From NCBI GenBank assembly GCA_040004745.1, contig JBDUAH010000001.1, positions 1 to 33,081 on the forward strand: 33,081 nucleotides of DNA. The letters are read 5' to 3'. The DNA comes from Chthoniobacterales bacterium (GTDB lineage: Bacteria > Verrucomicrobiota > Verrucomicrobiia > Chthoniobacterales > UBA10450). Positions within the stretch are counted from its first letter, which is position 1. Each line of letters starts with the position of its first letter. This document shows positions 11,824 through 26,604 of the stretch, piece by piece. Position numbers and translations under genes: made by a program. The notes under the pieces were generated by a model. The model was not told where the DNA came from and did no database searches. It saw only the letters and a list, made by a program, of their open reading frames with translations.

Positions 11824-11896
11824 TGGAGGTATGGGGATTCGAACCCCAGGCCTCGTCATTGCGAACGACGCGCTCTACCAACTGAGCTATACCCCC
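11824..11896 (-). tRNA. tRNA-Ala (anticodon CGC)
   Basis: The reverse complement GGGGGTATAGCTCAGTTGGTAGAGCGCGTCGTTCGCAATGACGAGGCCTGGGGTTCGAATCCCCATACCTCCA folds as a 73-nt cloverleaf. Anticodon loop is TTCGCAA, giving CGC. The G3:U70 alanine identity pair is present. CCA is not encoded. Confidence 0.92.
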
Positions 11897-13395: not shown

Positions 13396-14817
13396 TTAAG
13401 TGTCTGCTGCCGCCTTCGCCGCCAGCAAATCTTCGACAAAGAGCGCGTATTCCCGCGCCCGAGTGTCTTCATCCGGTTGCCGCAAGAGCGACGATGGATG
13501 CACCGTGGCCAGGACACGCGGTGCAAGCTCCGAAGATAGGACGACCCCGCGTTCTTTTGTGACCCGGAAAGACGAACCGAAAATCGCCTGCGCGGCAGTC
13601 GAACCCAGACAAACAAGAAGCTTCGGTTTCAGGATCCGGAGCTCAGCTTCCAGCCACGGACGGCAGGCGGCGATTTCTCGCGAGTTCGGTTTTTGGTGAA
13701 TGCGCCGCTTCCCGCGCGGTTCCCATTTAAAATGCTTCACCGTGTTGGTGACGTAAACCTGTTCACGATCGATTCCCGTTTCCTTGAGGGCACGATCAAG
13801 AAGTTTGCCCGCCGGGCCCACGAACGGTTTCCCAGCCAGGTCTTCCTGATCCCCCGGCTGTTCACCGAGGAACATGATCGTCGCCCGTTTCGGGCCTTCG
13901 CCGAAAACCGTCTGCGTGCCACGCTGGTAAAGCGGACACGCAGTGCATGCTCGCGCCGCTGCCGCGATTTTATCCAGGCTCTGTGTGTCCGGCACCTGTG
14001 CGGGACGTGATTCCGCGTTGTCGGCTATTTTGTTCGCGCTCTTTTTGACCATGGCTTCCACCCTGCTGGGCGCCGCCCGCAGGAGGGAAGGAATCAGCAC
14101 CGCCTCCGGCAGGTTACGCCAATATTTCTTCGGCATCTCCGCCTGCATCGCGTGAACCTTCACGCGCGCGGGATTGAAAATATTCGCGTAGTACGTCAGC
14201 CAGAGGGACTCGGCTTCGTCTTCCGTAGGTGCTTGGGACCTGGTCACTCCAGCGGTGAAGGTCAACGCGTTTCCATCCCAATGCGCGCACCGTTCCGGCG
14301 TGAGGATCGACCAACACATGGACGCGAAACGGTCGACAAAGAACCGCGCGTTATGCTCAACAATGTGATGCGCCGGTTCGAACCAAGCGATGAAACACTT
14401 CGCATCCCCATGCTGCACTTCGCGGAAGCGCACGAAGGCGCGCATTTTGTGGATATCGTGGCGGACGGATTTCTGCAGGTCGAAAGCGCGCGCTACATCC
14501 GGGTCGACTGCGACTTCGAGCAATTTCGACTCGCCGTGCGTGAGCCGCCAGACCAGCCGGTAAAGCAGCGCCCAACGTCCATTGTCTGTATGCAGCGCGA
14601 CCAAGCGGGCGAGCGCGAGGAAGGTTTTGGGGACGTGAAAACGCGGCGGCTCCGATTTCGAAACATCCGGCAACGGTTCGTCGAAAATGTCGAGGGCTGG
14701 CTGGTCGGCGGATAGCTCCTGCCAGACGACCTCATTAGGCGCCAGGCTCCGATGCAAGGCGGAACGCGCCGCCCGTTGCCAATCTTCCAACGCGGGATGA
14801 AACGTTATTTGTTCCAC
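13396..14817 (-). CDS. udgX: DUF4130 (TIGR03915-like) domain fused to a UdgX-type family-4 uracil-DNA glycosylase/uracil-DNA-binding domain
   Basis: 473 aa. The C-terminal half has family-4 UDG motifs: GEGPKRATIMFLGEQPGDQEDLAGKPFVGPAG, the UdgX-specific loop GKRRIHQKP, and VHPSSLLR. The N-terminal half has HKMRAFVRFREV and WFEPAHHIVEHNARFFVDRF, typical of the DUF4130 'probable DNA metabolism protein'. It starts 3 bp after the radical SAM gene ends. Confidence 0.85.
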   Translation of the reverse strand: MEQITFHPALEDWQRAARSALHRSLAPNEVVWQELSADQPALDIFDEPLPDVSKSEPPRFHVPKTFLALARLVALHTDNGRWALLYRLVWRLTHGESKLLEVAVDPDVARAFDLQKSVRHDIHKMRAFVRFREVQHGDAKCFIAWFEPAHHIVEHNARFFVDRFASMCWSILTPERCAHWDGNALTFTAGVTRSQAPTEDEAESLWLTYYANIFNPARVKVHAMQAEMPKKYWRNLPEAVLIPSLLRAAPSRVEAMVKKSANKIADNAESRPAQVPDTQSLDKIAAAARACTACPLYQRGTQTVFGEGPKRATIMFLGEQPGDQEDLAGKPFVGPAGKLLDRALKETGIDREQVYVTNTVKHFKWEPRGKRRIHQKPNSREIAACRPWLEAELRILKPKLLVCLGSTAAQAIFGSSFRVTKERGVVLSSELAPRVLATVHPSSLLRQPDEDTRAREYALFVEDLLAAKAAADT

Positions 14818-14820
14818 CGC

Positions 14821-16080
14821 CTACAGCTGACCGGTCAACACGGAAGGCTCCGGCGCGAACAAATCGAGTTGCTGATCAGGCGCGGTGAAGCGTCGGCTGA
14901 AATCATCACGATCGAGTGCGAGCGCGGCGGAGTTGTAATCCGCTGTCACCACAAACGGCAGCACCTTTTTCACCGAAACATGCAACCGCGGGAGATCATC
15001 CAGACGCACCTTGTGCCACCGACGGACGCGCAGAATTTTATCGACTGATTTCGTTCCCAAGCCGGGCACGCGCAAAAGCATTTCGCGCGCGGCCTTGTTC
15101 AAATCGACTGGGAACAAATGTCGATGACGCAAGGCCCACGCAAGCTTCGGGTCGATCGCGAGATCGAGGTTTGGCGCGGCTTCAGTGGTCAGTTCCTGCG
15201 CCTTGAAACCGTAGAATCGCACCAGCCAGTCGGCCTGGTAAAGTCGATGCTCGCGCACGAGCGGCGGCGCGATCAACGGCAGCTTGCTCGAAGCATCGGG
15301 AATCGGACTAAAGGCGGAATAATAAACGCGCCGCAGTTTCTGATTCGCGTAGAGCGAAGTCGCCTGGTGCAGAATCGTCGCGTCTGGCGTGTCTGTTGCG
15401 CCGACAATCATCTGCGTGCTCTGACCCGCCGGTGCAAAGGTCGGCGCTTTCCGGCTTTCGCGCCGCGCCGCTTTCGCCTGCGTAATGCGATCGCGAATGC
15501 CGCTCATGGCCGCCTTCGTATTTGCGAAATTCTTTTGCGGGGCCAGTTCTTCGAGCGCGACCTCCGTCGGCAATTCGATGTTGATGCTGATGCGATCCGC
15601 CCAGCGACCGGCTTCTTCGATCAAGGCCGGCGCAGCCTCCGGGATTGTTTTCAAATGAATGTAACCGCGAAACTGATGCTCGGTGCGAAGCGTCCGCGCG
15701 ACCGCCACAACTTGCTCCATCGTGTAGTCGGGATTGCGAATGATTCCGGAACTCAAAAACAGTCCTTCGATGTAATTACGTCGGTAAAAATCGAGCGTCA
15801 GTTGCACCACTTCTTCCGGGGTGAAGCGCGCCCGTTGGACATCGCTGGAAACGCGATTGATGCAGTAGAGGCAATCATAGATGCAATAGTTCGTGAGCAG
15901 GATTTTGAGCAGCGAGACACAGCGCCCATCCGGCGTGTAGCTGTGGCAAATCCCGGAGCCCGTGGTGGAACCCAACCCGCCCGACGTGCGCGAGTTTCGC
16001 TTCGTCGTCCCGCTGCTCGCGCACGACGCGTCGTACTTGGCCGCGTCGGCGAGAATGGCGAGTTTGCGATCGAGTTCCAT
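14821..16080 (-). CDS. putative DNA modification/repair radical SAM protein (TIGR03916-like)
   Basis: 419 aa. The N-terminus is LAILADAAKYDASCASSG...GICHSYTPDGRCVSLLKILLTNYCIYDCLYCINR, which contains the CX3CX2C radical-SAM motif. A C-terminal HhH-like region is present (LLRVPGLGTKSVDKIL). GGAGA sits 5 nt upstream of the ATG. Confidence 0.85.
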   Translation of the reverse strand: MELDRKLAILADAAKYDASCASSGTTKRNSRTSGGLGSTTGSGICHSYTPDGRCVSLLKILLTNYCIYDCLYCINRVSSDVQRARFTPEEVVQLTLDFYRRNYIEGLFLSSGIIRNPDYTMEQVVAVARTLRTEHQFRGYIHLKTIPEAAPALIEEAGRWADRISINIELPTEVALEELAPQKNFANTKAAMSGIRDRITQAKAARRESRKAPTFAPAGQSTQMIVGATDTPDATILHQATSLYANQKLRRVYYSAFSPIPDASSKLPLIAPPLVREHRLYQADWLVRFYGFKAQELTTEAAPNLDLAIDPKLAWALRHRHLFPVDLNKAAREMLLRVPGLGTKSVDKILRVRRWHKVRLDDLPRLHVSVKKVLPFVVTADYNSAALALDRDDFSRRFTAPDQQLDLFAPEPSVLTGQL

Positions 16081-16137: not shown

Positions 16138-16905
16138 CTACCGGTGCCTGCGCAAAAATTCATCCGCCAAAGCGCGATAAGCAATCGCCCCACTTCCATT
16201 CGGCGCGTAATCGAAGATCGATTTCCCGAAGCTCGGCGCTTCACTCAAACGCACGGTGCGCGGGATCACCGTCTCATACGTTTGTTCGGCGAAATGCTCG
16301 CGCACTTCCGAGACCACCTGCGCGCTCAAGTTCGTTCGGCGATCGAACATCGTCATGACAATGCCCGCGATCCGCACGTGATCGTTCACGCCGGAGTTTC
16401 GAATTTGTTCCACCACGCGCACAATCTTGACCAAACCTTCGAGGGCAAAAAATTCGCACTGAATCGGCGTGAGCAATTCATCGGCGGCGGCCAGCGCGTT
16501 GGTCATCAGGATGCCGAGCGAGGGCGGGCAATCGAGCAACACGAAATCGAAAGTCGCATCAGCGCGCAATGGCACCAGCGTCTCGCGGAGCCGCGTGAGA
16601 TGATTATCCATCCGCGCGATTTCGATTTCCGCGCCGGCGAGATCGAGATCAGCGGGAATGATGAACATTCCGTCCAAACGCGTCGGCAAAATTTTGTCGG
16701 TGACGGAGACATCGCCGATCAGCGACTCGTAGAGGCTCTCGCCTTCCAATTCGCTGAGCCCGAAGGAACTAGTGGCGTTGCCCTGAGGGTCGAGATCGAT
16801 CAAGAGCACGCGCTGACCCAGGTCCGCGAGCGCGCAACCAAGATTGACGGCGGTGGTCGTCTTGCCGACGCCGCCTTTCTGATTTGCGATCGCGATGACT
16901 TTCAT
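16138..16905 (-). CDS. parA: ParA/Soj-family ATPase, orphan (no parB adjacent)
   Basis: MKVIAIANQKGGVGKTTTAVNL carries the deviant Walker A motif KGGxxGKT. LLIDLDPQGNAT and FVLLDCPPSLG are also present. I place the start at the internal ATG 16905, which forms an ATGA overlap with the stop of the upstream gene (16902-16904). The tracked ORF runs on to 16968. Confidence 0.9.
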   Translation of the reverse strand: MKVIAIANQKGGVGKTTTAVNLGCALADLGQRVLLIDLDPQGNATSSFGLSELEGESLYESLIGDVSVTDKILPTRLDGMFIIPADLDLAGAEIEIARMDNHLTRLRETLVPLRADATFDFVLLDCPPSLGILMTNALAAADELLTPIQCEFFALEGLVKIVRVVEQIRNSGVNDHVRIAGIVMTMFDRRTNLSAQVVSEVREHFAEQTYETVIPRTVRLSEAPSFGKSIFDYAPNGSGAIAYRALADEFLRRHR

Positions 16906-19319
16906 GAGCGCGGCACAATCAGCGTCCGCAGCTCGAACGTGCGTCGGCCATCGCTCTCCTGCCAGCACAGATGATCGGGATCGGGTAGCATTTCCGTCAC
17001 TTCCAACTCGCCGGCCTTGACCAGCCAGCGATGGAAGATCTCGAGCGAGAGATAACTTTCGAGATCGATGAAGACTGGTTTCGTGTCTTTATCGCGACCT
17101 TCCGCGCCGCTCCGGCGCAAAGTCGCCTCCGTCGGTCGCATGTAGACGTAGCGAGGCCAATCTTTCTGGGCCCGGAGCTCCTCGATCGCCAGAACTAGAT
17201 CACGCGAGATCCCCCTGTAATCGCCGGGGGGTAATTCCTCCACCGAGACCGTCCAGGAGCGGCGTTGCACAATCACCCGTCCGCAACGCAAGCGCGGCAT
17301 GTGCGGCGAGGCCCCGAAATGGAAAGGATGAAAGCCCAACGGGATGAGCCAGGCGCGCGCGAAAGAACCGAGATATTCTTTTGATCCACAGGTGCGTAGA
17401 CCGACATCGTTCGTGAAACGATCGACAAAAACTTCCACCTCCGCAGGCCGGACGGTGCGCCAGCGCGGGTTGGCGCGTTGTGGCGCCACGAAAGTCATCA
17501 ATTCCGGCAGCGAATCCATGTAACGCACCGTGGTATGCGCGGTGAAATCGGCCGCGAAAAATCCGAAGTGAACGGCGGGCCGTTGGCCGGCCGAGCTGGC
17601 GAAAGCACGCGACAGCGCGGGTTTGTCCGGACAGCTCCAGTACAAAGCATGATGCATGAGCGCGACGGGCGGATGCAGTTCGCTTACGACCCATTGGTAA
17701 TCACCGCGGTCAATCGCGGCAAACGATTCGGCTGAGAGCTGCAAATCGGCGGACGGGTAGGTGTACTCGTCGAATTTTTCATATTCGAACTTCCGTCGGA
17801 CAAAGGCGCAATCTTCCGCCGTCAGTTCCCACTCCGGCGCTTGGGCACGGCTGCTGATCATCTCGCGAAAGGCTTGCTTCACTTCCTGGAACGCGAGGTG
17901 CGCAAACACGACCATGCCCGGTCCGGTGAGCGACAACCGGTTCGCGGCGCAGTGTTCTAGGAAAGCCGGCAACAAGACCGCGCCGTCCTGAACCGGTGCC
18001 GAGGCCAGTAGCCCGCGCAGGCCAGCCGCCACCCGCGAAGCCACATACGCGTAGGTATCGCGCCAGAGGTCAAACCACGGGGCTGCGTCGCGCGCCAAGT
18101 CGTCGGTGATTTCTTCGCTGACAACGAAACTACAGTCGCGCGCACATTCTTCCGCGATCGGGTTAGCCGCCGCGTAGAGAGAACGCTGACCGCCAGTCTG
18201 GCGCGGCCCGAGATCGTCCAAGAGATTCCGCGCGGTCGCCATGAAGGTAGTCCGGGCGGAGTTTTCGGTCGTAGCCGCAAACTGCGCCGGAAGGGCCGCG
18301 AGCTGTTGCACACGCTCTTCCCAGCGCGCTCGCACCGGGCCGGGTCGCCATTGGGCGATGTCGCGAACCAGCGTTTCAAAAGCGAGCGGGTCCAGCGCGG
18401 GCACCTCGCACTCCCAAAGCAGAACCCTTTGGTCGGCTAATTCCTCGAGCAAGGAAGCGTTCTCGCCTAACGAATGCGCGGGAGTTTTCCCGTCGCAACG
18501 TCCCACGAGATCCAATTGTTCCGAAGTCAGGCGCACGGGTGGTTGAGAATCCGCCGGGACGAAGTTGTCGCCTTGCAGATTTCCGTTCGGATGCAGACGA
18601 GGTGCGAATTCCATCCGCGTTTCCGAATCCAGATTCAGCGCCACCGCCAGCGAATGCGCGGCCCAGCGTTCCAAAAAAGTAAAGCGCTCGAAGACGCCAG
18701 TCCCGGCAGTGAAGGAGACGCCCGAGGCTGAGTTCTCGATCGTACCCCAAGCCGACGGTCCAAAAGCGCCGAAGGTGTCGTTTTTTCCGCAGACCCTTTG
18801 CAGGTAAAGCAGCAAATGGCGCTCGCGCTCGCGGGTGCGCGCATTCCGTGGCGGCAAAGCGGCGCTGCCATCCAGGTCCGTGAGCCGCTCACGAAATTCG
18901 CCGGCGCCGAAGACGAGGTAAGCAGGAAGCACCGCGCCGCTGGAGGACGCGAGAGCGCGGCGCGCGGCTTCCAGTTCTCGCTGCAACGTCTGCGAGAACG
19001 TCATCTCCAGCGCAGAAATTTCCTCCGCCAGCGCAAGGAAACTTGTGATTTCGGGCGGCGTGGATTCGCTAATTCCGCTAGGCGCGATTCCCGTCTTCAG
19101 CGCAGCGCGGTAAGCGCGGGAGGCGTCGCCAGAGAGACGGCTTGCTTTCGAACCCAGCAGGCGCTCAGCCTCTTCAAGCGCCGCGCCCAGGCGAGATTGG
19201 CAATCGAGAGAATCACGCGCGCGCTGCGCTGTTTCCCGCGTCGCGAGTGCCTCCAAATGATCGAAGGGCACTCCCGCCATGCGAATCAAGAAAATCGGAG
19301 CGACGCGGTAACTCGACAC
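16902..19319 (-). CDS. stand-alone LanB-type protein (lantibiotic dehydratase N-terminal / glutamylation-like domain only)
   Basis: 805 aa. The N-terminus FLIRMAGVPFDHLEAL, then RERHLLLYLQRVCGKNDTFGAFGPSAWG (compare the R..TPFGLFAG motif of LanB enzymes), and the C-proximal PRLRCGRVIVQRRSW (compare the PR...G.VVL...W motif) resemble Lant_dehydr_N. The length leaves no room for the ~300-aa elimination domain. The start is uncertain: GTG at 19319, or the ATG for MAGVPFD at 19280. Confidence 0.6.
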   Translation of the reverse strand: MSSYRVAPIFLIRMAGVPFDHLEALATRETAQRARDSLDCQSRLGAALEEAERLLGSKASRLSGDASRAYRAALKTGIAPSGISESTPPEITSFLALAEEISALEMTFSQTLQRELEAARRALASSSGAVLPAYLVFGAGEFRERLTDLDGSAALPPRNARTRERERHLLLYLQRVCGKNDTFGAFGPSAWGTIENSASGVSFTAGTGVFERFTFLERWAAHSLAVALNLDSETRMEFAPRLHPNGNLQGDNFVPADSQPPVRLTSEQLDLVGRCDGKTPAHSLGENASLLEELADQRVLLWECEVPALDPLAFETLVRDIAQWRPGPVRARWEERVQQLAALPAQFAATTENSARTTFMATARNLLDDLGPRQTGGQRSLYAAANPIAEECARDCSFVVSEEITDDLARDAAPWFDLWRDTYAYVASRVAAGLRGLLASAPVQDGAVLLPAFLEHCAANRLSLTGPGMVVFAHLAFQEVKQAFREMISSRAQAPEWELTAEDCAFVRRKFEYEKFDEYTYPSADLQLSAESFAAIDRGDYQWVVSELHPPVALMHHALYWSCPDKPALSRAFASSAGQRPAVHFGFFAADFTAHTTVRYMDSLPELMTFVAPQRANPRWRTVRPAEVEVFVDRFTNDVGLRTCGSKEYLGSFARAWLIPLGFHPFHFGASPHMPRLRCGRVIVQRRSWTVSVEELPPGDYRGISRDLVLAIEELRAQKDWPRYVYMRPTEATLRRSGAEGRDKDTKPVFIDLESYLSLEIFHRWLVKAGELEVTEMLPDPDHLCWQESDGRRTFELRTLIVPRS

Positions 19320-19446
19320 ACGGAGACAGAAACTAAACGCGCGGGAAGTGACAACCTAAAAGCCCGGCACCACGCAGCGCGACAGCGCGGCCAAGTCCCC
19401 GCTCGGCATGGACATCGCGCATACGCGACACAGATTGCGAGCGCGA

Positions 19447-20595
19447 TTAAGCTTCCGCCAACGGAAGCCGAATCGTGAAGATCGTTCCCAAATCGGGCGT
19501 GCTGTCGACCTTGATCGAACCGCGGTGATCTTCCACCACTTTCTTCGTGATGTAGAGCCCGAGACCGGTGCCGCTTCGGCCCTGCCGCGTGGTGAAATAG
19601 GGTTCGAAGATTTTTGGCATCTGCGCGGGGGTGATCCCACAGCCGGTATCCCGGATGCAGACATCCACATAGAAATCCTGCGAGGTGCATTGGACCGTGA
19701 CGGAGCCTTTGTTCTCGGCCGAAGCCTGGACGGCATTGACGATCACGTTCTGAATGGCGCGCTTAATTTGCACTGCGTCCCCCAAAACCAGTCCGCCCTC
19801 ACAGGTCTCGCTCACAATCTCCACTCCACTTTGCGTGGCGATCGACTCCACACCTTTTAAAACTTCGTGGACGATCTGGACTACATTCACCGGTCGATGC
19901 GCGGCCGCTTCCTGGCTGCCGTAGCTTTGCCACATCGTGAGCAGTTCCCGGCAAAGCCGCACATTTTGCTCGATGATGTTCAGCTCCTTGGCCGAGGTCG
20001 TGTTTTGGACGCCGCCTTCTTTTTCGGACTTCTCGAGTTTCTTCGCCAAAAGCTGCACGTAGCCCCAGACGATCGTGAGAGGATTGCCCAAGTCGTGCAC
20101 GAATTCCGCGGAGGCTTGCCCGAGAGACGCAAGCCGCTCTTTCTGCGCTAGCTCTTTCATGAGCCGAATATTTAGCTCGCGGATCTCTTCCGCCGCGCCC
20201 TCGCTGGAACGGTGCACGCGCGTGCGTTCGACATTCCGGCTGATCACCTCGCGCATCTCGACCGCGTCGAATGGCTTGCTGATGTAATCGTTCGCGCCTA
20301 AGCGGAGCGCTTCCTGCGCCGTCTCGAGCGCGCCAAAACCGGTTAACATGATGACCGCCACATGCGGGTCGATCTCGCGAATGCGACGCAGCCCATCGAT
20401 GCCATTGGTGCCAGGCATCCGGATGTCGCTCACCACCGCATCAGGTCGTTTCTCTCGCAGCAGGCGCAATCCAGCCTCCACCGTATTGGCGGTGTGCACC
20501 TGGTAATTGGGCTTCAGAAGCATCCGCAAACTTTCTCGCGGCCCCATCTCGTCATCGATCACGAGTATATGAGGAAGTTCGGGAGAGGCGGTCAT
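19447..20595 (-). CDS. hybrid response-regulator receiver / histidine kinase (REC-HisKA-HATPase)
   Basis: REC motifs: ILVIDDE, AVVSDIRMPG, IMLTG, SKPF. H-box: SAEFVHDLGNPL. N box: NVIVNAVQA. G1: IRDTGCGI. G2: GTGLGL. The start is placed at ATG 20595 (MTASPELPHILVIDDE) rather than at the ORF limit 20784, because the REC domain begins there and a sigma54-like promoter lies just upstream. Confidence 0.85.
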   Translation of the reverse strand: MTASPELPHILVIDDEMGPRESLRMLLKPNYQVHTANTVEAGLRLLREKRPDAVVSDIRMPGTNGIDGLRRIREIDPHVAVIMLTGFGALETAQEALRLGANDYISKPFDAVEMREVISRNVERTRVHRSSEGAAEEIRELNIRLMKELAQKERLASLGQASAEFVHDLGNPLTIVWGYVQLLAKKLEKSEKEGGVQNTTSAKELNIIEQNVRLCRELLTMWQSYGSQEAAAHRPVNVVQIVHEVLKGVESIATQSGVEIVSETCEGGLVLGDAVQIKRAIQNVIVNAVQASAENKGSVTVQCTSQDFYVDVCIRDTGCGITPAQMPKIFEPYFTTRQGRSGTGLGLYITKKVVEDHRGSIKVDSTPDLGTIFTIRLPLAEA

Positions 20596-20631: not shown

Positions 20632-20837
20632 TCGAAAAATCTCATAATGTCTCGGGGAAAAACGCCCGCAGCCCCGATGCTCCACTAAAGAATCGGGCGT
20701 CGACAAGGTACAAGTTGTGAATAAGCCCGAAATATGCTGAATAAGGACCGATTTGATTATGCGTGGCCGAGCCACCACATTCACTGGAACAGTTAGAAAT
20801 CACACGCGTTCACGTACTTCCGCACGATTCCTAGAGA

Positions 20838-22082
20838 ATGCCTAAACGAAATCGAGTTGTCGTCACCGGCATGGGAATTTTGGCGCCGAACGGGACAGGG
20901 CTCGAAGCGTTTTGGGAATCGCTTCTGGCTGGGCGGAGCGGGATTGGGCCGATTACGCTTTTCGACACTACCGGGTACAACAGCCGGATCGCAGGCGAGG
21001 TGAAAAGCTTTGACCCGCTGGATTATATCGAGGCCGAACTCAAACCGAAACGGATGGCGCGACACACTCAATTTGCGTTCGCAGCCACCATGATGGCACT
21101 CCAGGATGCGGGACTGGATCTCGATGACCTCTGCCTCCCGAGTCCAACGCCCGTCGTCATGGGAGTTAGCATGAACGCAATGGATGTCGTTGAAAAAGCC
21201 TTTCATGCTGTCCAAAATATCAACCCGAACCGGGCCGCTCCGTTTACGTCCAGCGCCTCGATTCCCCAAGCGGCCGCGAACGTCATCGCGGATAGACTAG
21301 GCCACTGCGCGAACGCTGCCACCGTTTCATCGGCGTGCCCATCAGGCCTGGACGCGATCGCCGATGCCGCGGCGATGATTCGCAGAGGTGATGCCGAATT
21401 GGCAATCGCTGGTGGGACTGATGCGCCAATTACGCCACTGGTTATCGCCAGTTTCATCGCGAGTGGGCTGAGCTCTCAACGCAACGATGAACCGGAGAAA
21501 GCTAGTCGGCCGTTCGACCTCAGCCGCGATAGTGGTGTGATTTCCGAAGGAGCAGGGGTGATGGTGCTCGAGAATTTGGAGCGGGCGCAAGCTCGAGGCG
21601 CGCGAATCTATATGGAAATCGCAGGCTATGGAAAACAGCGAGACCGTGATCACTCTCGGCCTGCGTCTGGACTTGAAGACTCCATGGCTTTGGCCCTGGC
21701 CAACGCCGGCTGGACCACACACAGCGTGGATTATATCTCAGCGTACGGGCCGGGACACCCGGTCCTCGACACCGCGGAGGCCGCCGTCATCGCCCGGGTC
21801 TTCAAAGAGCGCGCACGCTGTATTCCCGTGAATTCGATCAAAGGTGTTACCGGCAACGCCTTGGCGGCCGGCGGCCCTTTCCAGTTAATCGCTTCCGCTT
21901 TGTGCATGCGGGAACAAACGATCCCACCGACCGCAAATTGTGACGAATTGGATCCATCTTGCGACTTGGATATCGTCCGGCTAAAGCCGCGTCGAGCGGT
22001 CTTGAATAACATTTTGATTAATGTCCGCGGACTTGGAGGAAGCGCGAGCACGATGCTGGTGAGCCGCGTTCAAAACGAGTGA
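20838..22082 (+). CDS. FabF/KAS-II-like beta-ketoacyl synthase with a non-canonical active site (Cys retained, both His apparently replaced)
   Basis: 414 aa. RVVVTGMGILAPNG is the KS N-terminus. The active-site Cys lies in VSSACPSGLDAI. YISAYGPGHPVLD stands where FabF has NAHGTSTP, and NSIKGVTGNALAAGG where FabF has KSMTGHLLGAAG. The stop overlaps the next gene's GTG (GTGA at 22079-22082). Confidence 0.85.
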   Translation: MPKRNRVVVTGMGILAPNGTGLEAFWESLLAGRSGIGPITLFDTTGYNSRIAGEVKSFDPLDYIEAELKPKRMARHTQFAFAATMMALQDAGLDLDDLCLPSPTPVVMGVSMNAMDVVEKAFHAVQNINPNRAAPFTSSASIPQAAANVIADRLGHCANAATVSSACPSGLDAIADAAAMIRRGDAELAIAGGTDAPITPLVIASFIASGLSSQRNDEPEKASRPFDLSRDSGVISEGAGVMVLENLERAQARGARIYMEIAGYGKQRDRDHSRPASGLEDSMALALANAGWTTHSVDYISAYGPGHPVLDTAEAAVIARVFKERARCIPVNSIKGVTGNALAAGGPFQLIASALCMREQTIPPTANCDELDPSCDLDIVRLKPRRAVLNNILINVRGLGGSASTMLVSRVQNE

Positions 22083-24604
22083 ACAATTCGGCTCTCTCCA
22101 CCCTCGCGGCGATTGTCATTCAACTCGCCTTGGCTCTGGCCGTTTTCCAGGCCAATCCACGCCGAAAATCCAATCAGTGTTTTCTCCTTCTCTCGGGGGT
22201 GATCGCGGTTTGGTTGGGAAGCTTGTTTCAAACTCTCACCACCACGAACGCTGAAGTCGGCGCCTTTTACATTAGGCACGCCTCCGCGGCCGGGGCTCTC
22301 ACCCTGGTTTTCTTCAATCTGCTCCGCCTGACCATCACCCGGCCCGCCGACCGATGGAGCAGCCTGCTGAGACAATCGTGGATTTGGCTGGTGGCAGGAT
22401 TCGCTGTGGGACTGCTCTGCCAGACCGGGCTCTTTCTGAAGACGGCCGAGTTTAGTGCGCCAGGTTCTTCCACAAATCTCACGCTTCATCCCGTCTACGG
22501 GAAAGGGCTGCTTCTCTACATTCTTTATTTTTTCGTTGCGGGGTTCGCAATTTTGTTCAGCTACCTCCGGGCCGTAAGAAACGCAACCGCGCTAGAGCGC
22601 TCTGAACTTTCTTTCATCCTGATCGGCGCGGGCGCCACGCTCGCCACGGTTGGCTTGGCGGCAATTGCTGGCTTTTTCGTCGACAGAGCCCGCTTGCTGT
22701 GGTTCGCGCCGTTTCGCATTGTCGTTTTCAGCATCGTCATTGCATTCGGCATCACGACCCAAAAGATCATGGAGGTGGGCTTCGTTCTCCGCCGGACACT
22801 GTCTTACGCCCTGCTTACAGCGTACCTCCTTGCTCTTTACACAATAGTCTGGTGGCTAGGCTACGCCGCCTTCGCGCATCTCTTGGGGAATCTGGGACAA
22901 TCCATTGCTCACGTCACGGCAGCGATCATTATCGCTTTTGCGATGGCGCCGGCACGCGGAGTATCGCAATCGCTGGCTGACCGCCTGTTCGGTGGGACGC
23001 GCAGCCTGGATTTCCGCGCCACTGTGAGCAAAGCCGCGGAAATTCTGAAATCTGTGAGCACGCTTCCAGAACTTTTGGCCCGTTTCGCCACCACGATTGG
23101 AGAGGCGGTCGGGACCGATCGCATCGTGATATTGCTCCGCGAAAGGCACATTTTCCAACAATCCTACCCGTCATCTGCCGACAGTACCGATGATCGGAGC
23201 AGACTGAGCGAAGACGATCCGCTCCTAGTCTTCTTGACCAAGGAACAACAGCCTCTCGTCTTGGAGGGCTTGTACCGCGCGCGTTCGACGCCGGAGGTCG
23301 AAGAACTGATCGCCAGGATGATCGCGTTAAAAGCCGTGGTCGTTACAGGAATTTTTTCCCGACAGCACTTAGTTGGGGTGATGGTTCTAGGTCCACGTCG
23401 CTCGCGCCGGATTTATGGCAGTGTGGAGCAAAATGCCCTGCAAATTCTATGCGGACAGCTCGCAGTCGCGATTGATAATGCACGCCTCTTCACCGAGGTC
23501 CAAAACGCCAAGCTTTACAATGAAACTCTCCTCGAAAATCTGACGAGTGGCGTGATTGCGGTCGGCGCGGACGAACGTGTCACCGTGTTCAACAACGAGG
23601 CGGGGCAAATCACCGGGCTGGATCCACGCGAGGTCATCGATCGCTCGATCGAAAATCTTCCGGACTCGATCCGTGACGGTCTGCGCGATACTTTGCATTC
23701 GGTCGAACGACGGGAGAACAACGAGATCGCGCTGCAATCTGATCAGGAGGCGGTGGTGGCCCGGGCCAGTAGTTCCGTTTTCCATGGCCAGGAAGGCGAA
23801 ATGTTGGGAGCGCTGATGGTGTTGACCGATATCACTGCCCTCAAGCGTCTCGAGCAGCAGATTCGACGGAGCGATCGATTAGCCAGCCTGGGAACGCTCT
23901 CCGCGGGTATGGCGCACGAAATCAAAAACCCGCTCGTCTCGATCAAAACCTTCGCGCAACTGCTCCCCGAGCGTTATCAGGATTCCGATTTTCGCGAGAC
24001 CTTTTCGAATTTAATCGGCCACGAGATCGACCGCATCGACTCGCTCGTGAACCAGCTCCTGCGTTTCGCGCGCCCCGCGAAGCCACTCTTGAAGCCGATG
24101 CACGTCCACGATGTCCTGGAAAAGTCGCTCATGCTCGTCGGGCACCGGCTTTACCAAAAAGAAATTAAATTATCGAGGTCGTGGAACGCCGAAGTTGATA
24201 CAATCCGCGCGGATGCGGATCAGCTCGAACAGGTCTTCCTCAATTTCTTTCTCAATGCCATGGACGCGATGAAACTCGGCGGCGAGTTAATTGTGGCGAC
24301 AGAGATTCGGTCGGCCGAGGACTGGATCGCTTCTGTCACCTCCAATGGTGATGGTGCGCGGGAAATCCTGTGCGTCACGGTACAGGATAATGGCGAAGGA
24401 ATTAAGAATGAGGACATCGCTCACGTTTTCGATCCTTTCTTCACCACGAAAGATTACGGGACGGGACTCGGGCTTTCTGTCGTCCACGGCATCATCCAGG
24501 AACATGGAGGCGAGATCGAAGTGGAGAGCGAACTCGCCAATGGCACTTCATTTCACATTTTGCTCCCCCTCGTCCGCTTTCAGGAAGAGGTGGCCGCCGC
24601 ATGA
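22079..24604 (+). CDS. membrane sensor histidine kinase (multi-TM N-terminal domain, then GAF-PAS-HisKA-HATPase)
   Basis: 841 aa. About 300 aa of repeated hydrophobic helices come first. GAF region: ...VGVMVLGPRRSRRIYGSVEQNALQILCGQLAVAIDNARLF. PAS region: LLENLTSGVIAVGADERVTVFNNEAGQITG. H-box: GMAHEIKNPLVSIKTFAQLLPERY. N box: FLNAMDAM. G boxes: VQDNGEGI and GTGLGLSV. Confidence 0.85.
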   Translation: MNNSALSTLAAIVIQLALALAVFQANPRRKSNQCFLLLSGVIAVWLGSLFQTLTTTNAEVGAFYIRHASAAGALTLVFFNLLRLTITRPADRWSSLLRQSWIWLVAGFAVGLLCQTGLFLKTAEFSAPGSSTNLTLHPVYGKGLLLYILYFFVAGFAILFSYLRAVRNATALERSELSFILIGAGATLATVGLAAIAGFFVDRARLLWFAPFRIVVFSIVIAFGITTQKIMEVGFVLRRTLSYALLTAYLLALYTIVWWLGYAAFAHLLGNLGQSIAHVTAAIIIAFAMAPARGVSQSLADRLFGGTRSLDFRATVSKAAEILKSVSTLPELLARFATTIGEAVGTDRIVILLRERHIFQQSYPSSADSTDDRSRLSEDDPLLVFLTKEQQPLVLEGLYRARSTPEVEELIARMIALKAVVVTGIFSRQHLVGVMVLGPRRSRRIYGSVEQNALQILCGQLAVAIDNARLFTEVQNAKLYNETLLENLTSGVIAVGADERVTVFNNEAGQITGLDPREVIDRSIENLPDSIRDGLRDTLHSVERRENNEIALQSDQEAVVARASSSVFHGQEGEMLGALMVLTDITALKRLEQQIRRSDRLASLGTLSAGMAHEIKNPLVSIKTFAQLLPERYQDSDFRETFSNLIGHEIDRIDSLVNQLLRFARPAKPLLKPMHVHDVLEKSLMLVGHRLYQKEIKLSRSWNAEVDTIRADADQLEQVFLNFFLNAMDAMKLGGELIVATEIRSAEDWIASVTSNGDGAREILCVTVQDNGEGIKNEDIAHVFDPFFTTKDYGTGLGLSVVHGIIQEHGGEIEVESELANGTSFHILLPLVRFQEEVAAA

Positions 24605-26604
24605 TGACGCCCTCCCCGGTTTGCGTTCTTTACACACAGGACGCCGACCTTAACCGTCGGCTGAAGGCATTCCTGCGCGCGATGGCGCAGGTCCGCCACG
24701 TCGCAGACGCGGACCGCTTGGAATCCGTCCTGCAACAGGTGGGACCCAGCGTGCTCTTGCTGGATTTGCGGGCCAAAGAGGGCCGTGATCTGCTCGATCA
24801 GATACACAAGGAGCGGCCCGAAGTTCTCATCATCGCATTGGGCACGCCGCGTTCGGAACCATTGCGCGAAGCGGAAGATTCAGGCGTTTACGCGGCGGAA
24901 GATTTGGTACTCGATCGGCGCCATTTCCAGGCACTGGTTGCCCGCGCTTTCGATCACTTGCGTCTGATGCAGGAGAATCGCGAACTGCGCGAAACCTCAA
25001 CCGCCACCCTCGCTCTGGCGGCTCTGCGTCCACACAACGGATCGGCCGAAGGTTCGCCCACGGCCACACCGCTCTCCCGCTTTCCACGCGTTTTCCGTCG
25101 CTTCGATAATGTGGAGACGCTGCTCGCGCGGGTGGTCGAGGGGTTAGCCGACACCGCGGGCGTTTCCCGTGTAGGAATTTTCTCCCGCATTCGACAAAGC
25201 GACCGTTACCGTTTGCGCGCCGGTCTCCGTTGCCTCCCGGAAACTTACGACGCGGAATACATGGAGCGCGATCCGCTTGTGCGTTGGTTCGAATTAAACG
25301 CTCACCTGATCTGCCGTGCGCACCTGACAGAAACTCCAGTTCAAGCACAGCGCCTTCTCTTGCGCCGCGCCCTCGACGCTTTTGGCGCGGAAGTCATCGT
25401 GCCGTTGCACGCCAACGGTCGCATCATCGGCTGGCTCTTTTTCGGGCATCGGCTCACCGGCCAGCGCTTCGATTATCTCGATCTGGAGAATCTGATGATC
25501 CTGGCGGAGCAGGTCTCCACCGTCCTGGAAAATGCTTGCCTCCACGAACAACTCACGCTGGAAAAGACGCTGGCCGAGACGCTCCTCAAATCCATTCCTC
25601 CAGGCATCGTGGCGACAGACGAGGATGCCATTGTGCGCTGGTTTAACCCCACAGCCGCAAAAGTCCTCGGGCTGAAAGCAGCAGATGTCTTGAATCAGCC
25701 GGTCGAGGCCGCTGGCGGACGCCTCGCGGCTTTTTTGCGCGACGCGCTGGCCACGAACGGAAATCTCCCGACCCGGCAATGGGTCGACGGCAATACTCAA
25801 CGATCGCTCACCATCGAAGCGCGCCGCGTCTTGAACGGCAACACTCCCTTCGGCGCCGTAGCCGTCGTGCAGGATTTGACCGCGCAGGAGGACTTGCGCC
25901 AAAAGCAGGATCTCTTCGAGCGCGCCGCCTTTTGGACCGATCTCGCGGCCAGCATGTCGCACGAAATCCGGAACCCGCTGGTCGCGATCAAGACGTTTGC
26001 GCAACTCCTGCCCGAGCGTTTCGATGACGCGGATTTCCGCGACGAATTCAATCACATCGTGGTCGAGGAAATCGACCGCCTGGACCAGATCATCACTCAG
26101 ATCAACAACTTCGCGCACCCTTCAGAATTGGTCATGAAGTCGTTCGATCTGCGCGATTCCGTTCAGAATGTGCTGAAAATCGCGCGGGAACGGAGCGACC
26201 CCAATGGCACGACCGTGGAGGTCAATTTCCCGAAGGATCTCCCGCACATTTTGGGAGACGAGAGCGCACTTACGGAAGCGTTCGCGCATCTGGTCTCGAA
26301 TGCGACGGAGGCCACGGATGGACGACCTAAAGCCAAGGTTACGCTCGAAGCCAAATCGATTGGTGAAGGCGAAGAGAGCCGCGCGGTGGTCGTGACGGTG
26401 CAAGATAATGGCAAAGGCATCGACCCCGAGTTGAAGGACAAGATTTTCTCGCCCTTCTGCACCACCAAACCGCGCGGCATGGGGCTCGGGTTGCCGATCG
26501 TGAAACGGACGGTTTTCGATCACAACGGCCGGCTGGACATTGACTCGAATCCGCGCGGCACCTCCGTCAGCGTGATGCTGCCTGCGAGCACGAACGGCGA
26601 TTAA
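24601..26604 (+). CDS. cytoplasmic sensor histidine kinase (REC-like N-terminus, then GAF-PAS-HisKA-HATPase), paralogue of the preceding kinase
   Basis: 667 aa. The start forms an ATGA overlap with the upstream stop (24601-24604). The N-terminal ~120 aa are receiver-like (VLLLDLR, LIIALGT). GAF: IIGWLFFGHRLTGQRF. PAS: LLKSIPPGIVATDEDAIVRWFNPTAAKVLG. H-box: SMSHEIRNPLVAIKTFAQLLPERF. G boxes: VQDNGKGI and GMGLGLPI. Confidence 0.85.
   Translation: MMTPSPVCVLYTQDADLNRRLKAFLRAMAQVRHVADADRLESVLQQVGPSVLLLDLRAKEGRDLLDQIHKERPEVLIIALGTPRSEPLREAEDSGVYAAEDLVLDRRHFQALVARAFDHLRLMQENRELRETSTATLALAALRPHNGSAEGSPTATPLSRFPRVFRRFDNVETLLARVVEGLADTAGVSRVGIFSRIRQSDRYRLRAGLRCLPETYDAEYMERDPLVRWFELNAHLICRAHLTETPVQAQRLLLRRALDAFGAEVIVPLHANGRIIGWLFFGHRLTGQRFDYLDLENLMILAEQVSTVLENACLHEQLTLEKTLAETLLKSIPPGIVATDEDAIVRWFNPTAAKVLGLKAADVLNQPVEAAGGRLAAFLRDALATNGNLPTRQWVDGNTQRSLTIEARRVLNGNTPFGAVAVVQDLTAQEDLRQKQDLFERAAFWTDLAASMSHEIRNPLVAIKTFAQLLPERFDDADFRDEFNHIVVEEIDRLDQIITQINNFAHPSELVMKSFDLRDSVQNVLKIARERSDPNGTTVEVNFPKDLPHILGDESALTEAFAHLVSNATEATDGRPKAKVTLEAKSIGEGEESRAVVVTVQDNGKGIDPELKDKIFSPFCTTKPRGMGLGLPIVKRTVFDHNGRLDIDSNPRGTSVSVMLPASTNGD

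Follow-up and report, generated by a model that had tools for sequence, protein, structure and literature searches.

Full-length class I LanB dehydratases span about 1000 amino acids (aa) in total and end in a glutamate-elimination domain (Lant_dehydr_C, PF14028). The glutamylation-type fold also occurs as a stand-alone protein of about 800 aa, both in split LanBs such as TbtB (thiomuracin) and GodF (goadsporin) and in the peptide aminoacyl-tRNA ligases (PEARLs) TglB, BhaB1/4/5/7, AmmB1-4, TmoB and SnaE. To our knowledge, every PEARL characterised so far belongs to a biosynthetic gene cluster, where it makes natural products on carrier peptides or on non-ribosomal peptide synthetase (NRPS) intermediates, and each of them is accompanied by genes for a carrier or precursor peptide, a protease and tailoring enzymes. 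The choice of tRNA and substrate by PEARLs is, as the field states, not yet predictable. Here we analyze a gene for an 805-aa protein in a stretch of 33,081 nucleotides (nt) of a Chthoniobacterales bacterium (Verrucomicrobiota; assembly GCA_040004745.1, contig JBDUAH010000001.1, positions 1 to 33,081), hereafter referred to as the window. Judged from sequence and predicted structure, the protein is a PEARL homologue that is cluster-less, order-wide, coupled to ParA and equipped with a hypervariable recognition half, and the function we propose for it is a predicted one.

The PEARL active site has been proposed to originate from ATP-grasp amide ligases that act on C-terminal carboxylates, such as glutathione synthetase, RimK and tubulin-tyrosine ligase (PMC11117183). 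TbtB residues Arg743, Phe783 and Glu851 are common to LanBs and PEARLs, whereas TglB Asp542 and Arg803 are conserved in PEARLs only, their counterparts in split LanBs being Tyr and Leu; TglB Glu564, a conserved His and Glu801 (corresponding to TbtB Glu851) make up the rest of an ATP-grasp-like site, which phosphorylates the carboxylate of the substrate (PMC11117183). In BhaB7, Tyr205-x-x-Arg208 is assigned to binding the tRNA at its 3'-CCA end, and AlphaFold3 models of PEARLs led to the proposal that the half made of the helical bundle and the RRE touches the tRNA body and the peptide; the same work treats the role of an N-terminal Arg (Arg10 in TglB, Arg34 in BhaB7) (PMC11962472).

Fold, active-site residues and start codon

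The gene and its parts are as follows (residue numbers here and below are on the 805-aa scale).
16902..19319, minus strand: PEARL-like gene, 805 aa, with a GTG start at 19319 and a TGA stop at 16904..16902 (open reading frame and translation)
19281..19283, minus strand: codon for Arg13, part of a conserved strand at the N-terminus (F-L-I-R-M-A-G-V-P-F), and by its place in the motif the likely counterpart of TglB Arg10 and BhaB7 Arg34
18777..18830, minus strand: helix RERERHLLLYLQRVCGKND, residues 164-181, with Tyr172-x-x-Arg175 and Lys179, putatively binding the tRNA 3'-CCA end (motif pattern)
18405..18617, minus strand: RRE-like (PqqD-like winged-helix) segment, about residues 235-305, containing CDGKTPAHSLG (AlphaFold2 secondary structure and hhalign)
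16920..17762, minus strand: C-terminal ATP-grasp-like catalytic half, residues 520-800 (invariant residues, TbtB alignment and the PEARL Asp/Arg criterion)

Against Pfam Lant_dehydr_N (PF04738) the protein scores 69 bits (cut-off 28; E 3.2e-19), with residues 153-413 aligning to positions 27-292 of the hidden Markov model (HMM). Its C-terminal part alone (about residues 665-732) independently matches HMM positions 566-634 of 649. Since the N- and C-terminal parts match opposite ends of PF04738, the glutamylation-type domain covers almost the entire protein. Lant_dehydr_C gave no match in it even at E<=10, no NCBIfam model matches it, and a whole-protein phmmer search of PDB sequences found nothing. 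We then searched an AlphaFold2 model, made from 60 homologues (pLDDT 84, pTM 0.82), against the PDB with Foldseek. TbtB, GodF, MibB, MadB and NisB are the sole matches at E<=1e-15; the following match has an E-value of 0.17. The best of them is TbtB (E 1e-21, TM score 0.61-0.63), the split LanBs TbtB and GodF spanning 1e-21 to 5e-19 and the full-length dehydratases MibB, MadB and NisB 1e-15 to 7e-19. Sequence identity to these structural matches is 9-16%, and at the sequence level only the C-terminal 110 residues align to TbtB (E 2e-6 for the family profile and 1e-5 for the protein by itself), the C-terminal region of TbtB being the sole direct sequence match in the PDB. The protein thus shares PF04738 and the predicted glutamylation domain fold with NisB, MibB and MadB; unlike them, it is without the elimination domain of about 250-300 aa and has no LanC, LanA, LanT or LanP nearby.

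A preliminary description, made from the DNA letters alone, had proposed an 805-aa protein of the LanB glutamylation type, without an elimination domain, on the basis of three motifs. The reading frame, with its GTG start, is real, and the assignment is borne out by the PF04738 match, the missing PF14028 match and the modelled fold. All three motifs, FLIRMAGVPFDHL (residues 10-22), LYLQRVCGKNDTFGAFGPSAWG (residues 171-192) and PRLRCGRVIVQRRSW (residues 675-689), were located and are spread over the protein, 116 aa of which remain after the last motif (about 100 had been estimated).

Residue-level comparison was used to place the protein between split LanBs and PEARLs. In a direct alignment with TbtB (where the PDB chain index equals UniProt numbering + 3), Arg686 aligns with the adenine-binding R743 and Tyr726 with the aromatic F783. 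Counting past the alignment end places Glu796 at roughly the position of TbtB E851, in agreement with the published equivalence of E851 and TglB E801, and Arg798, the PEARL state, lies two residues further on. The complete PEARL residue set comprises Asp525, Glu547-x-His549 and Glu796-x-Arg798, corresponding to TglB D542, E564/His and E801/R803; the spacing of 22 residues between Asp525 and Glu547 is the same as that between D542 and E564. Across an alignment of 73 full-length representative relatives, 22-44% identical to the query, Arg175, Asp525, Glu547, Arg676, Arg686, Lys747, Asp752, Glu776, Glu796 and Arg798 are invariant (73/73), His549 is present in 69 and Lys179 in 70, and position 726 is aromatic throughout. 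Y172-L-Q-R175 fits the BhaB7 Tyr205-x-x-Arg208 pattern, by which motif pattern the two are presumed equivalent; this pattern and Arg13 recur in every subfamily.

Profile comparison with hhalign matched the protein to a PEARL-like family of Myxococcota, Acidobacteriota and Chloroflexota (probability 100%, E 8e-62, 754 columns). A member of this family from Sorangium, P0280, has D566, E588, H590, E825 and R827 aligned with the residue set above, four of which (D/E/E/R) equal the TglB numbers +24. Its gene lies in a tgl-like cluster, next to a further Lant_dehydr_N gene and one of the TglH family (PF05114). Judged by all residue-level criteria at hand, the 805-aa protein is predicted to be PEARL-like, not split-LanB-like. 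At the same time, the PEARL-like families sampled are only 22-30% identical to it. Like PEARLs, it is a LanB-glutamylation fold that stands alone, measures about 800 aa and lacks an elimination domain. It also shares with them the residue set of the ATP-grasp-like site, the Arg and the aromatic residue that stack on adenine, the helix with Tyr-x-x-Arg and the Arg near the N-terminus.

The RRE-like segment is built in the AlphaFold2 model as strand-strand-helix-helix-helix, and hhalign places residues 235-305 (approximately) on the region of homologue P0275 that has a PqqD (PF05402) match. The window protein itself has no PqqD/RRE Pfam match at E<=10, and the label rests on this homology. Such a segment would favour a peptide substrate.

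The position of the start codon deserves a comment. The public gene model (P0001) begins at an ATG at 19280 and codes for 792 aa; it leaves out a conserved N-terminal stretch of 13 residues to which the family-invariant Arg13 belongs. Comparison of homologue N-termini showed that SSYRVAPIFLIR, the 13 residues N-terminal to the internal ATG, is conserved and includes the Arg found in every subfamily. For this reason the GTG at 19319 is the true start and the public call is truncated. The same mis-start is common among public orthologues, which include entries of 791-797 aa opening with MAGVPF.

Conserved block, distribution and N-terminal variability

Two genes flank the PEARL-like gene on the same strand.
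16138..16905, minus strand: Soj-type ParA ATPase, 255 aa, MKVIAIANQKGGVGKTT..., closely homologous to chromosomal Soj (Pfam AAA_31, E 6e-56; Thermus Soj 1WCV, E 6e-67)
19447..20595, minus strand: hybrid response regulator/histidine kinase (REC + HisKA + HATPase_c), about 382 aa from the ATG at 20595 (Pfam)

The PEARL-like gene and ParA overlap by 4 nt (ATGA), where the TGA of the former meets the ATG of the latter (16905..16903). Among the 109 related loci with enough sequence, 103 have ParA downstream on the same strand, and in 77 it overlaps or abuts the PEARL-like gene. Likewise, 76 of 77 related loci have the hybrid kinase upstream, on the same strand and no more than 800 nt away; the gap separating it from the enzyme gene is 127 nt in the window and has a median of 104 nt across loci. 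The order hybrid kinase, PEARL-like gene, Soj-like ParA recurs in more than 100 Chthoniobacterales loci. The block is kept as a unit, since the flanks beyond it differ between genomes.

Databases contain more than 950 relatives of the 805-aa protein. When one genome per species was scanned, at least 217 genomes had a relative, and all 80 of those retrieved are metagenome-assembled genomes of Chthoniobacterales or Verrucomicrobiae. An exhaustive profile search returned 2,765 cluster representatives at E<=1e-3, of which the best 150 are all <=876 aa long. Outgroups (about 30-48% identity and below) occur in biosynthetic contexts, none of which has the arrangement with ParA and the hybrid kinase. 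One of these loci has three or four tandem Lant_dehydr_N genes (L143); another combines an AMP-binding enzyme, a methyltransferase and a MATE exporter (L100). GH3-type or AMP-binding adenylating enzymes and MatE are present in L113, L118, L087 and L117, two PEARL-like genes with an Asp/Arg hydroxylase and an NRPS module in L084, and genes for an acyl carrier protein, adenylation and ATP-grasp enzymes on Streptomyces plasmids (L145, L146). Because the outgroups sit in biosynthetic clusters lacking the ParA and hybrid kinase arrangement, we infer that the Chthoniobacterales lineage is a PEARL-like branch that left the cluster context. Our literature search found no description of PEARL homologues in Verrucomicrobiota or of any linked to ParA.

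Details were recorded for two of the outgroup loci. The closest outgroup of the Chthoniobacterales family, at 44% identity, is L143:1-9469 (Logan SRR14005101), an array of several consecutive genes for about 750-820 aa; two of them have recorded Lant_dehydr_N matches, those at the contig ends are without Pfam data, and no other gene types are visible. The Sorangium sp. So ce887 locus L083:7443-14411 (CP150354.1) is a tgl-like cluster in which a tandem pair of PEARL-like genes occurs with a gene of the TglH family (PF05114) and a partner lacking annotation. Genes for a large radical SAM protein and a PDZ protein come before it, and the whole is apparently a pearlin-type pathway that is as yet uncharacterised.

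Two other settings for the family were considered and rejected. Origin from a mobile element or plasmid was traced no further than Streptomyces and Kitasatospora plasmid homologues of 23-31% identity, the only ones found. As for known anti-phage defence, PADLOC gave no match for the enzyme, and its neighbours had trivial P-loop or REC matches only.

The two halves of the enzyme differ in their degree of conservation. Within the family, residues 1-390 have a mean pairwise identity of 0.49, compared with 0.69 in the catalytic half and 0.79 in ParA; expressed as mean column identity, the C-terminal half reaches about 0.75. Some pairs of loci show a marked discordance. In the comparison of the window with L010, the flanking proteins are 94% identical, the N-terminal half of the enzyme 44% and its C-terminal half 77%; for L088 and L105 the respective values are 98%, 44% and 69%. 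At the DNA level, the flanks of the window and L010 are 85-90% identical, whereas about 1.2 kb at the 5' end of the gene could not be aligned by blastn. The discordant region covers window positions 17900-19319 (about 390 codons), between ParA and hybrid kinase genes whose products are 93-98% identical. This pattern suggests allele replacement or diversifying selection acting on the half made of the helical bundle and the RRE-like segment. A fast-evolving, recombining N-terminal half in turn suggests strain-variable recognition of substrate or tRNA. The idea of an agr-like specificity locus was rejected, as covariation of the N-terminal half with the sensor domain of the neighbouring kinase, itself fast-evolving, had a partial r of 0.14 after control for flank identity.

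Most orthologues retain a well-conserved RRE-like CDG...T.A motif. A subset is shorter by about 90-120 aa (L103, 5905-8058; L104, L110, L106-L109, L126), missing some 50 residues of the helical bundle and some 70 RRE-like residues (window protein residues 235-305, approximately), with a catalytic half of about 60% identity; the RRE-like segment is deleted in L103, L104 and L110.

Missing partners and possible functions

We searched the locus for the genes that would be expected of a lanthipeptide or PEARL pathway. None of the window ORFs (open reading frames) of at least 150 aa matches Lant_dehydr_C or LANC_like, which agrees with the preliminary description, where neither an elimination partner nor a cyclase had been seen in the 33 kb. 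No PF14028, LanC or conserved precursor was called in six Pfam-annotated related or outgroup loci, and in the remaining loci the tblastn check covered the conserved neighbours only. A YcaO gene was not found in the 33 kb or in the Pfam-annotated related loci.

Several candidates for a substrate were tried and rejected. The two small ORFs of 19 and 29 aa in the gap upstream of the gene, already regarded as unconvincing precursors in the preliminary description, are specific to the window and not conserved in the 85 related loci compared, nor does the gap between the hybrid kinase and enzyme genes hold any other conserved ORF in these loci. A recurrent 'peptide' (LSLPAxSVLL...) proved to arise when conserved upstream DNA and the beginning of the gene are read out of frame. 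Where gaps of 110-220 nt separate the enzyme gene from ParA, they are palindromic inserts resembling miniature inverted-repeat transposable elements (MITEs) or repetitive extragenic palindromic (REP) sequences and code for no conserved peptide. Between 12 and 27 kb of the window, there was no conserved intergenic small ORF, every candidate lying across a large gene that is read in a different frame or from the opposite strand, and no PLALA-like C-termini were found. The C-termini of ParA and the hybrid kinase were dismissed as a conserved substrate tail, their tails being variable.

The fold, its set of active-site residues, the conserved gene order, the lack of partner genes and the hypervariability are results of the analysis; the chemistry and the kind of substrate are deduced. 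We consider it reasonably probable that the protein is a PEARL-type ligase, dependent on ATP and aminoacyl-tRNA, with a substrate encoded elsewhere, most likely a peptide or protein carboxylate. By homology, a pocket of Asp525, Glu547/His549 and Glu796/Arg798 would bind ATP and Mg, and the enzyme would phosphorylate the carboxylate of its substrate. An aminoacyl-tRNA, with its 3'-CCA end on the Tyr172/Arg175 helix, would attack to form an amide bond, followed by hydrolysis of the tRNA. In Chthoniobacterales the gene is a fixed chromosomal one that lies behind the hybrid kinase and is predicted to be co-transcribed, and usually translationally coupled, with the Soj-like ParA. As in ATP-grasp ligases, a constellation of acidic residues and Arg would phosphorylate a carboxylate, and RimK appears, with weak and non-significant matches, in the tail of the Foldseek results. 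Unlike in those ligases, the predicted nucleophile is an aminoacyl-tRNA rather than a free amino acid and the architecture is that of LanB; the similarity is without statistical support.

Several points weigh against a PEARL-type ligase of this kind. Unlike the known PEARLs, it has no carrier or precursor peptide, protease, tailoring gene or paralogous PEARL nearby, and in their place there is an order-wide block with ParA and a two-component protein and a hypervariable, mosaic N-terminal half. The equivalence with TglB residues is indirect, combining the published description, TbtB alignments and a tgl-like homologue with matching numbering. Moreover, the PEARL-type residues are conserved across the sampled branch of the superfamily of about 800 aa and define no specific reaction. 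The absence of the RRE-like segment from about ten orthologues weakens recognition of the leader-peptide type. Finally, synteny conserved within one order could be largely inherited rather than functional.

Two alternatives would give the protein a different activity or none. It might be a split LanB that uses Glu-tRNA to glutamylate Ser/Thr of a RiPP precursor (RiPPs are ribosomally made peptides modified after translation), the PF14028 protein, precursor and cyclase or azoline genes being elsewhere in the genome. The Pfam Lant_dehydr_N match is compatible with this, and so are the best structural matches: TbtB and GodF are of equal size (about 800 aa). However, the protein has Asp525 and Arg798 where split LanBs reportedly have Tyr and Leu. 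In addition, split LanB genes normally adjoin their partners, yet no PF14028, LanC or YcaO was found in the loci searched as above, nor any elimination partner, precursor or azole/pyridine synthase genes of the kind associated with TbtB and GodF, and the nearest relatives lie in PEARL-type rather than thiopeptide or lanthipeptide clusters. We therefore regard a split LanB as very improbable, and the preference for a PEARL-like protein expressed in the preliminary description is upheld by the invariance of Asp525 and Arg798 (73/73), the stand-alone fold, the PEARL-type outgroup clusters and the lack of partner genes. It might also be argued that the protein is a catalytically dead or structural relic kept by operon linkage, given its low identity to PDB entries, the lack of an NCBIfam match and the fast evolution of the N-terminal half. 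This is hardly credible: the residues assigned to ATP/Mg, adenine and CCA binding are invariant or nearly so in hundreds of orthologues and across subfamilies, the C-terminal half is the well-conserved one, and full-length ORFs persist in at least 217 species-level genomes.

The remaining alternatives concern what a PEARL-like enzyme would act on. A small-molecule or non-ribosomal carboxylate in a dispersed pathway, as for SnaE, is unlikely. It would fit the relatives of 35-48% identity and the Streptomyces plasmid homologues, which are flanked by AMP-binding or GH3 enzymes, acyl carrier proteins, NRPS parts, methyltransferases and MATE exporters, as well as the orthologues without an RRE-like segment and the constant divergent neighbour, a FabF-like ketosynthase; but the Chthoniobacterales block is without an adenylating enzyme, carrier protein or exporter, and the RRE-like CDG...T.A motif is retained by most orthologues. 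Alternatively, the substrate could be a protein of the block itself, the Soj-like ParA or the hybrid kinase, whose C-terminal or side-chain carboxylate would receive an amino acid and so tune positioning or signalling. ATGA coupling to ParA in most of the more than 100 loci, the upstream hybrid kinase (76/77) and the lack of a peptide gene in cis all point this way, and BhaB7 extends tagged proteins in vitro (PMC11962472). Against it, ParA tails past EFLRRH vary in length and sequence, as do the C-termini of the hybrid kinase, ParA is 70-95% identical across loci in contrast to the hypervariable recognition half of the enzyme, with no sign of co-evolution, and synteny within a single order is weak evidence for an enzyme-substrate relation. 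On balance, a block protein is quite an unlikely substrate. A broader reading, unlikely as well, is that Chthoniobacterales took over a PEARL-type enzyme for a core cellular function. Without the ribosome, it would add an amino acid from aminoacyl-tRNA to the C-terminus or a side-chain carboxylate of a cellular protein or signalling peptide, in connection with the co-translated ParA and the neighbouring two-component proteins; it would be a bacterial analogue of tubulin tyrosination, in which the hypervariable N-terminal half might set a strain-specific choice of tRNA or substrate.

Whatever the substrate, the lineage keeps the full catalytic signature without a recognisable cluster, in a fixed, operon-coupled gene of an abundant soil order. 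If active, the PEARL-type ligase would carry out tRNA-dependent, ribosome-independent amide formation in a new physiological setting, with protein or peptide tailoring, signalling and cell organisation as possibilities, and would offer a large natural panel of N-terminal-domain variants for the study of how PEARLs choose tRNA and substrate. On the practical side, genome-mining tools that label the gene 'lantibiotic dehydratase' would call a false lanthipeptide cluster in every Chthoniobacterales genome.

Further features of the locus

Beyond the block, the following features were recorded.
19327..19358, minus strand: conserved non-coding motif TTGTCAc ... gTTTaGTTTCTg, also recorded as GTTTaGTTTCTG (alignment of 85 upstream regions)
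20838-22082, plus strand: FabF-like ketosynthase, first gene of a divergent operon (Pfam, NCBIfam)
22079-24604, plus strand: PAS/GAF histidine kinase of the same operon (Pfam, NCBIfam)
24601-26604, plus strand: second large PAS/GAF histidine kinase of the same operon (Pfam, NCBIfam)
13396-16080, minus strand: 'putative DNA modification/repair radical SAM' protein (TIGR03916, E 4e-177; rSAM_link_UDG) and DUF4130-UdgX uracil-DNA-binding fusion
11824-11896, minus strand: tRNA-Ala(CGC), the sole RNA gene in the window

The non-coding motif lies 10-45 nt 5' of the start codon and recurs in the majority of the 85 related loci, while one subclade has a second type, TTGCCAC...TTCTGTTTTCTTCAGG. A role as promoter or as an element of the 5' untranslated region is conceivable. 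The motif matches neither the sigma-70 consensus nor Rfam, and searches around the operon for sigma-70 promoters, terminators and Rfam elements gave nothing above chance.

At the other end of the gene, inserts of about 110-220 nt separate it from ParA in a number of loci (L010:8373-8522, L012:8370-8519, L013, L017, L018, L026, L028, L029, L055, L059, L077, L081 and L040). They are strongly palindromic and belong to few sequence types, for example ...CGAAATCCGAAACAATGACC...GGATTTCGAATTT and GGGGAGCGCACGCGCC...GGCGCGTGCGCTCCCC, and some of them recreate the ATGAA start of ParA. Judging from these sequences, the inserts look like MITE/REP-like elements targeting the junction of the gene and ParA.

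The genes of the divergent operon are translationally coupled by successive overlaps of 4 nt, and where the flank is long enough, nearly every locus has the operon beside the block. Its ketosynthase scores under the fabF equivalog cut-off, and a ketosynthase with two kinases makes an odd operon to be kept order-wide. Between the window and L010, about 1.2 kb (approximately 22182-23374), covering the end of the ketosynthase gene and the start of the first kinase gene, is largely unalignable, with flanks of 85-90% identity.

On the ParA side, the radical SAM and DUF4130-UdgX pair is often, not always, directly 3' of ParA in related loci. Some 4 kb downstream of ParA, the last gene of its operon, and some 5 kb away from the PEARL-like gene is the tRNA-Ala(CGC) gene, which no evidence ties to the enzyme. 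Two antisense ORFs, 16144-16974 (plus strand, 276 aa) and 20793-21269 (minus strand, 158 aa), oppose ParA and the ketosynthase, respectively, and have no family matches. They are almost certainly not genes, their seeming conservation mirroring that of the genes on the opposite strand.

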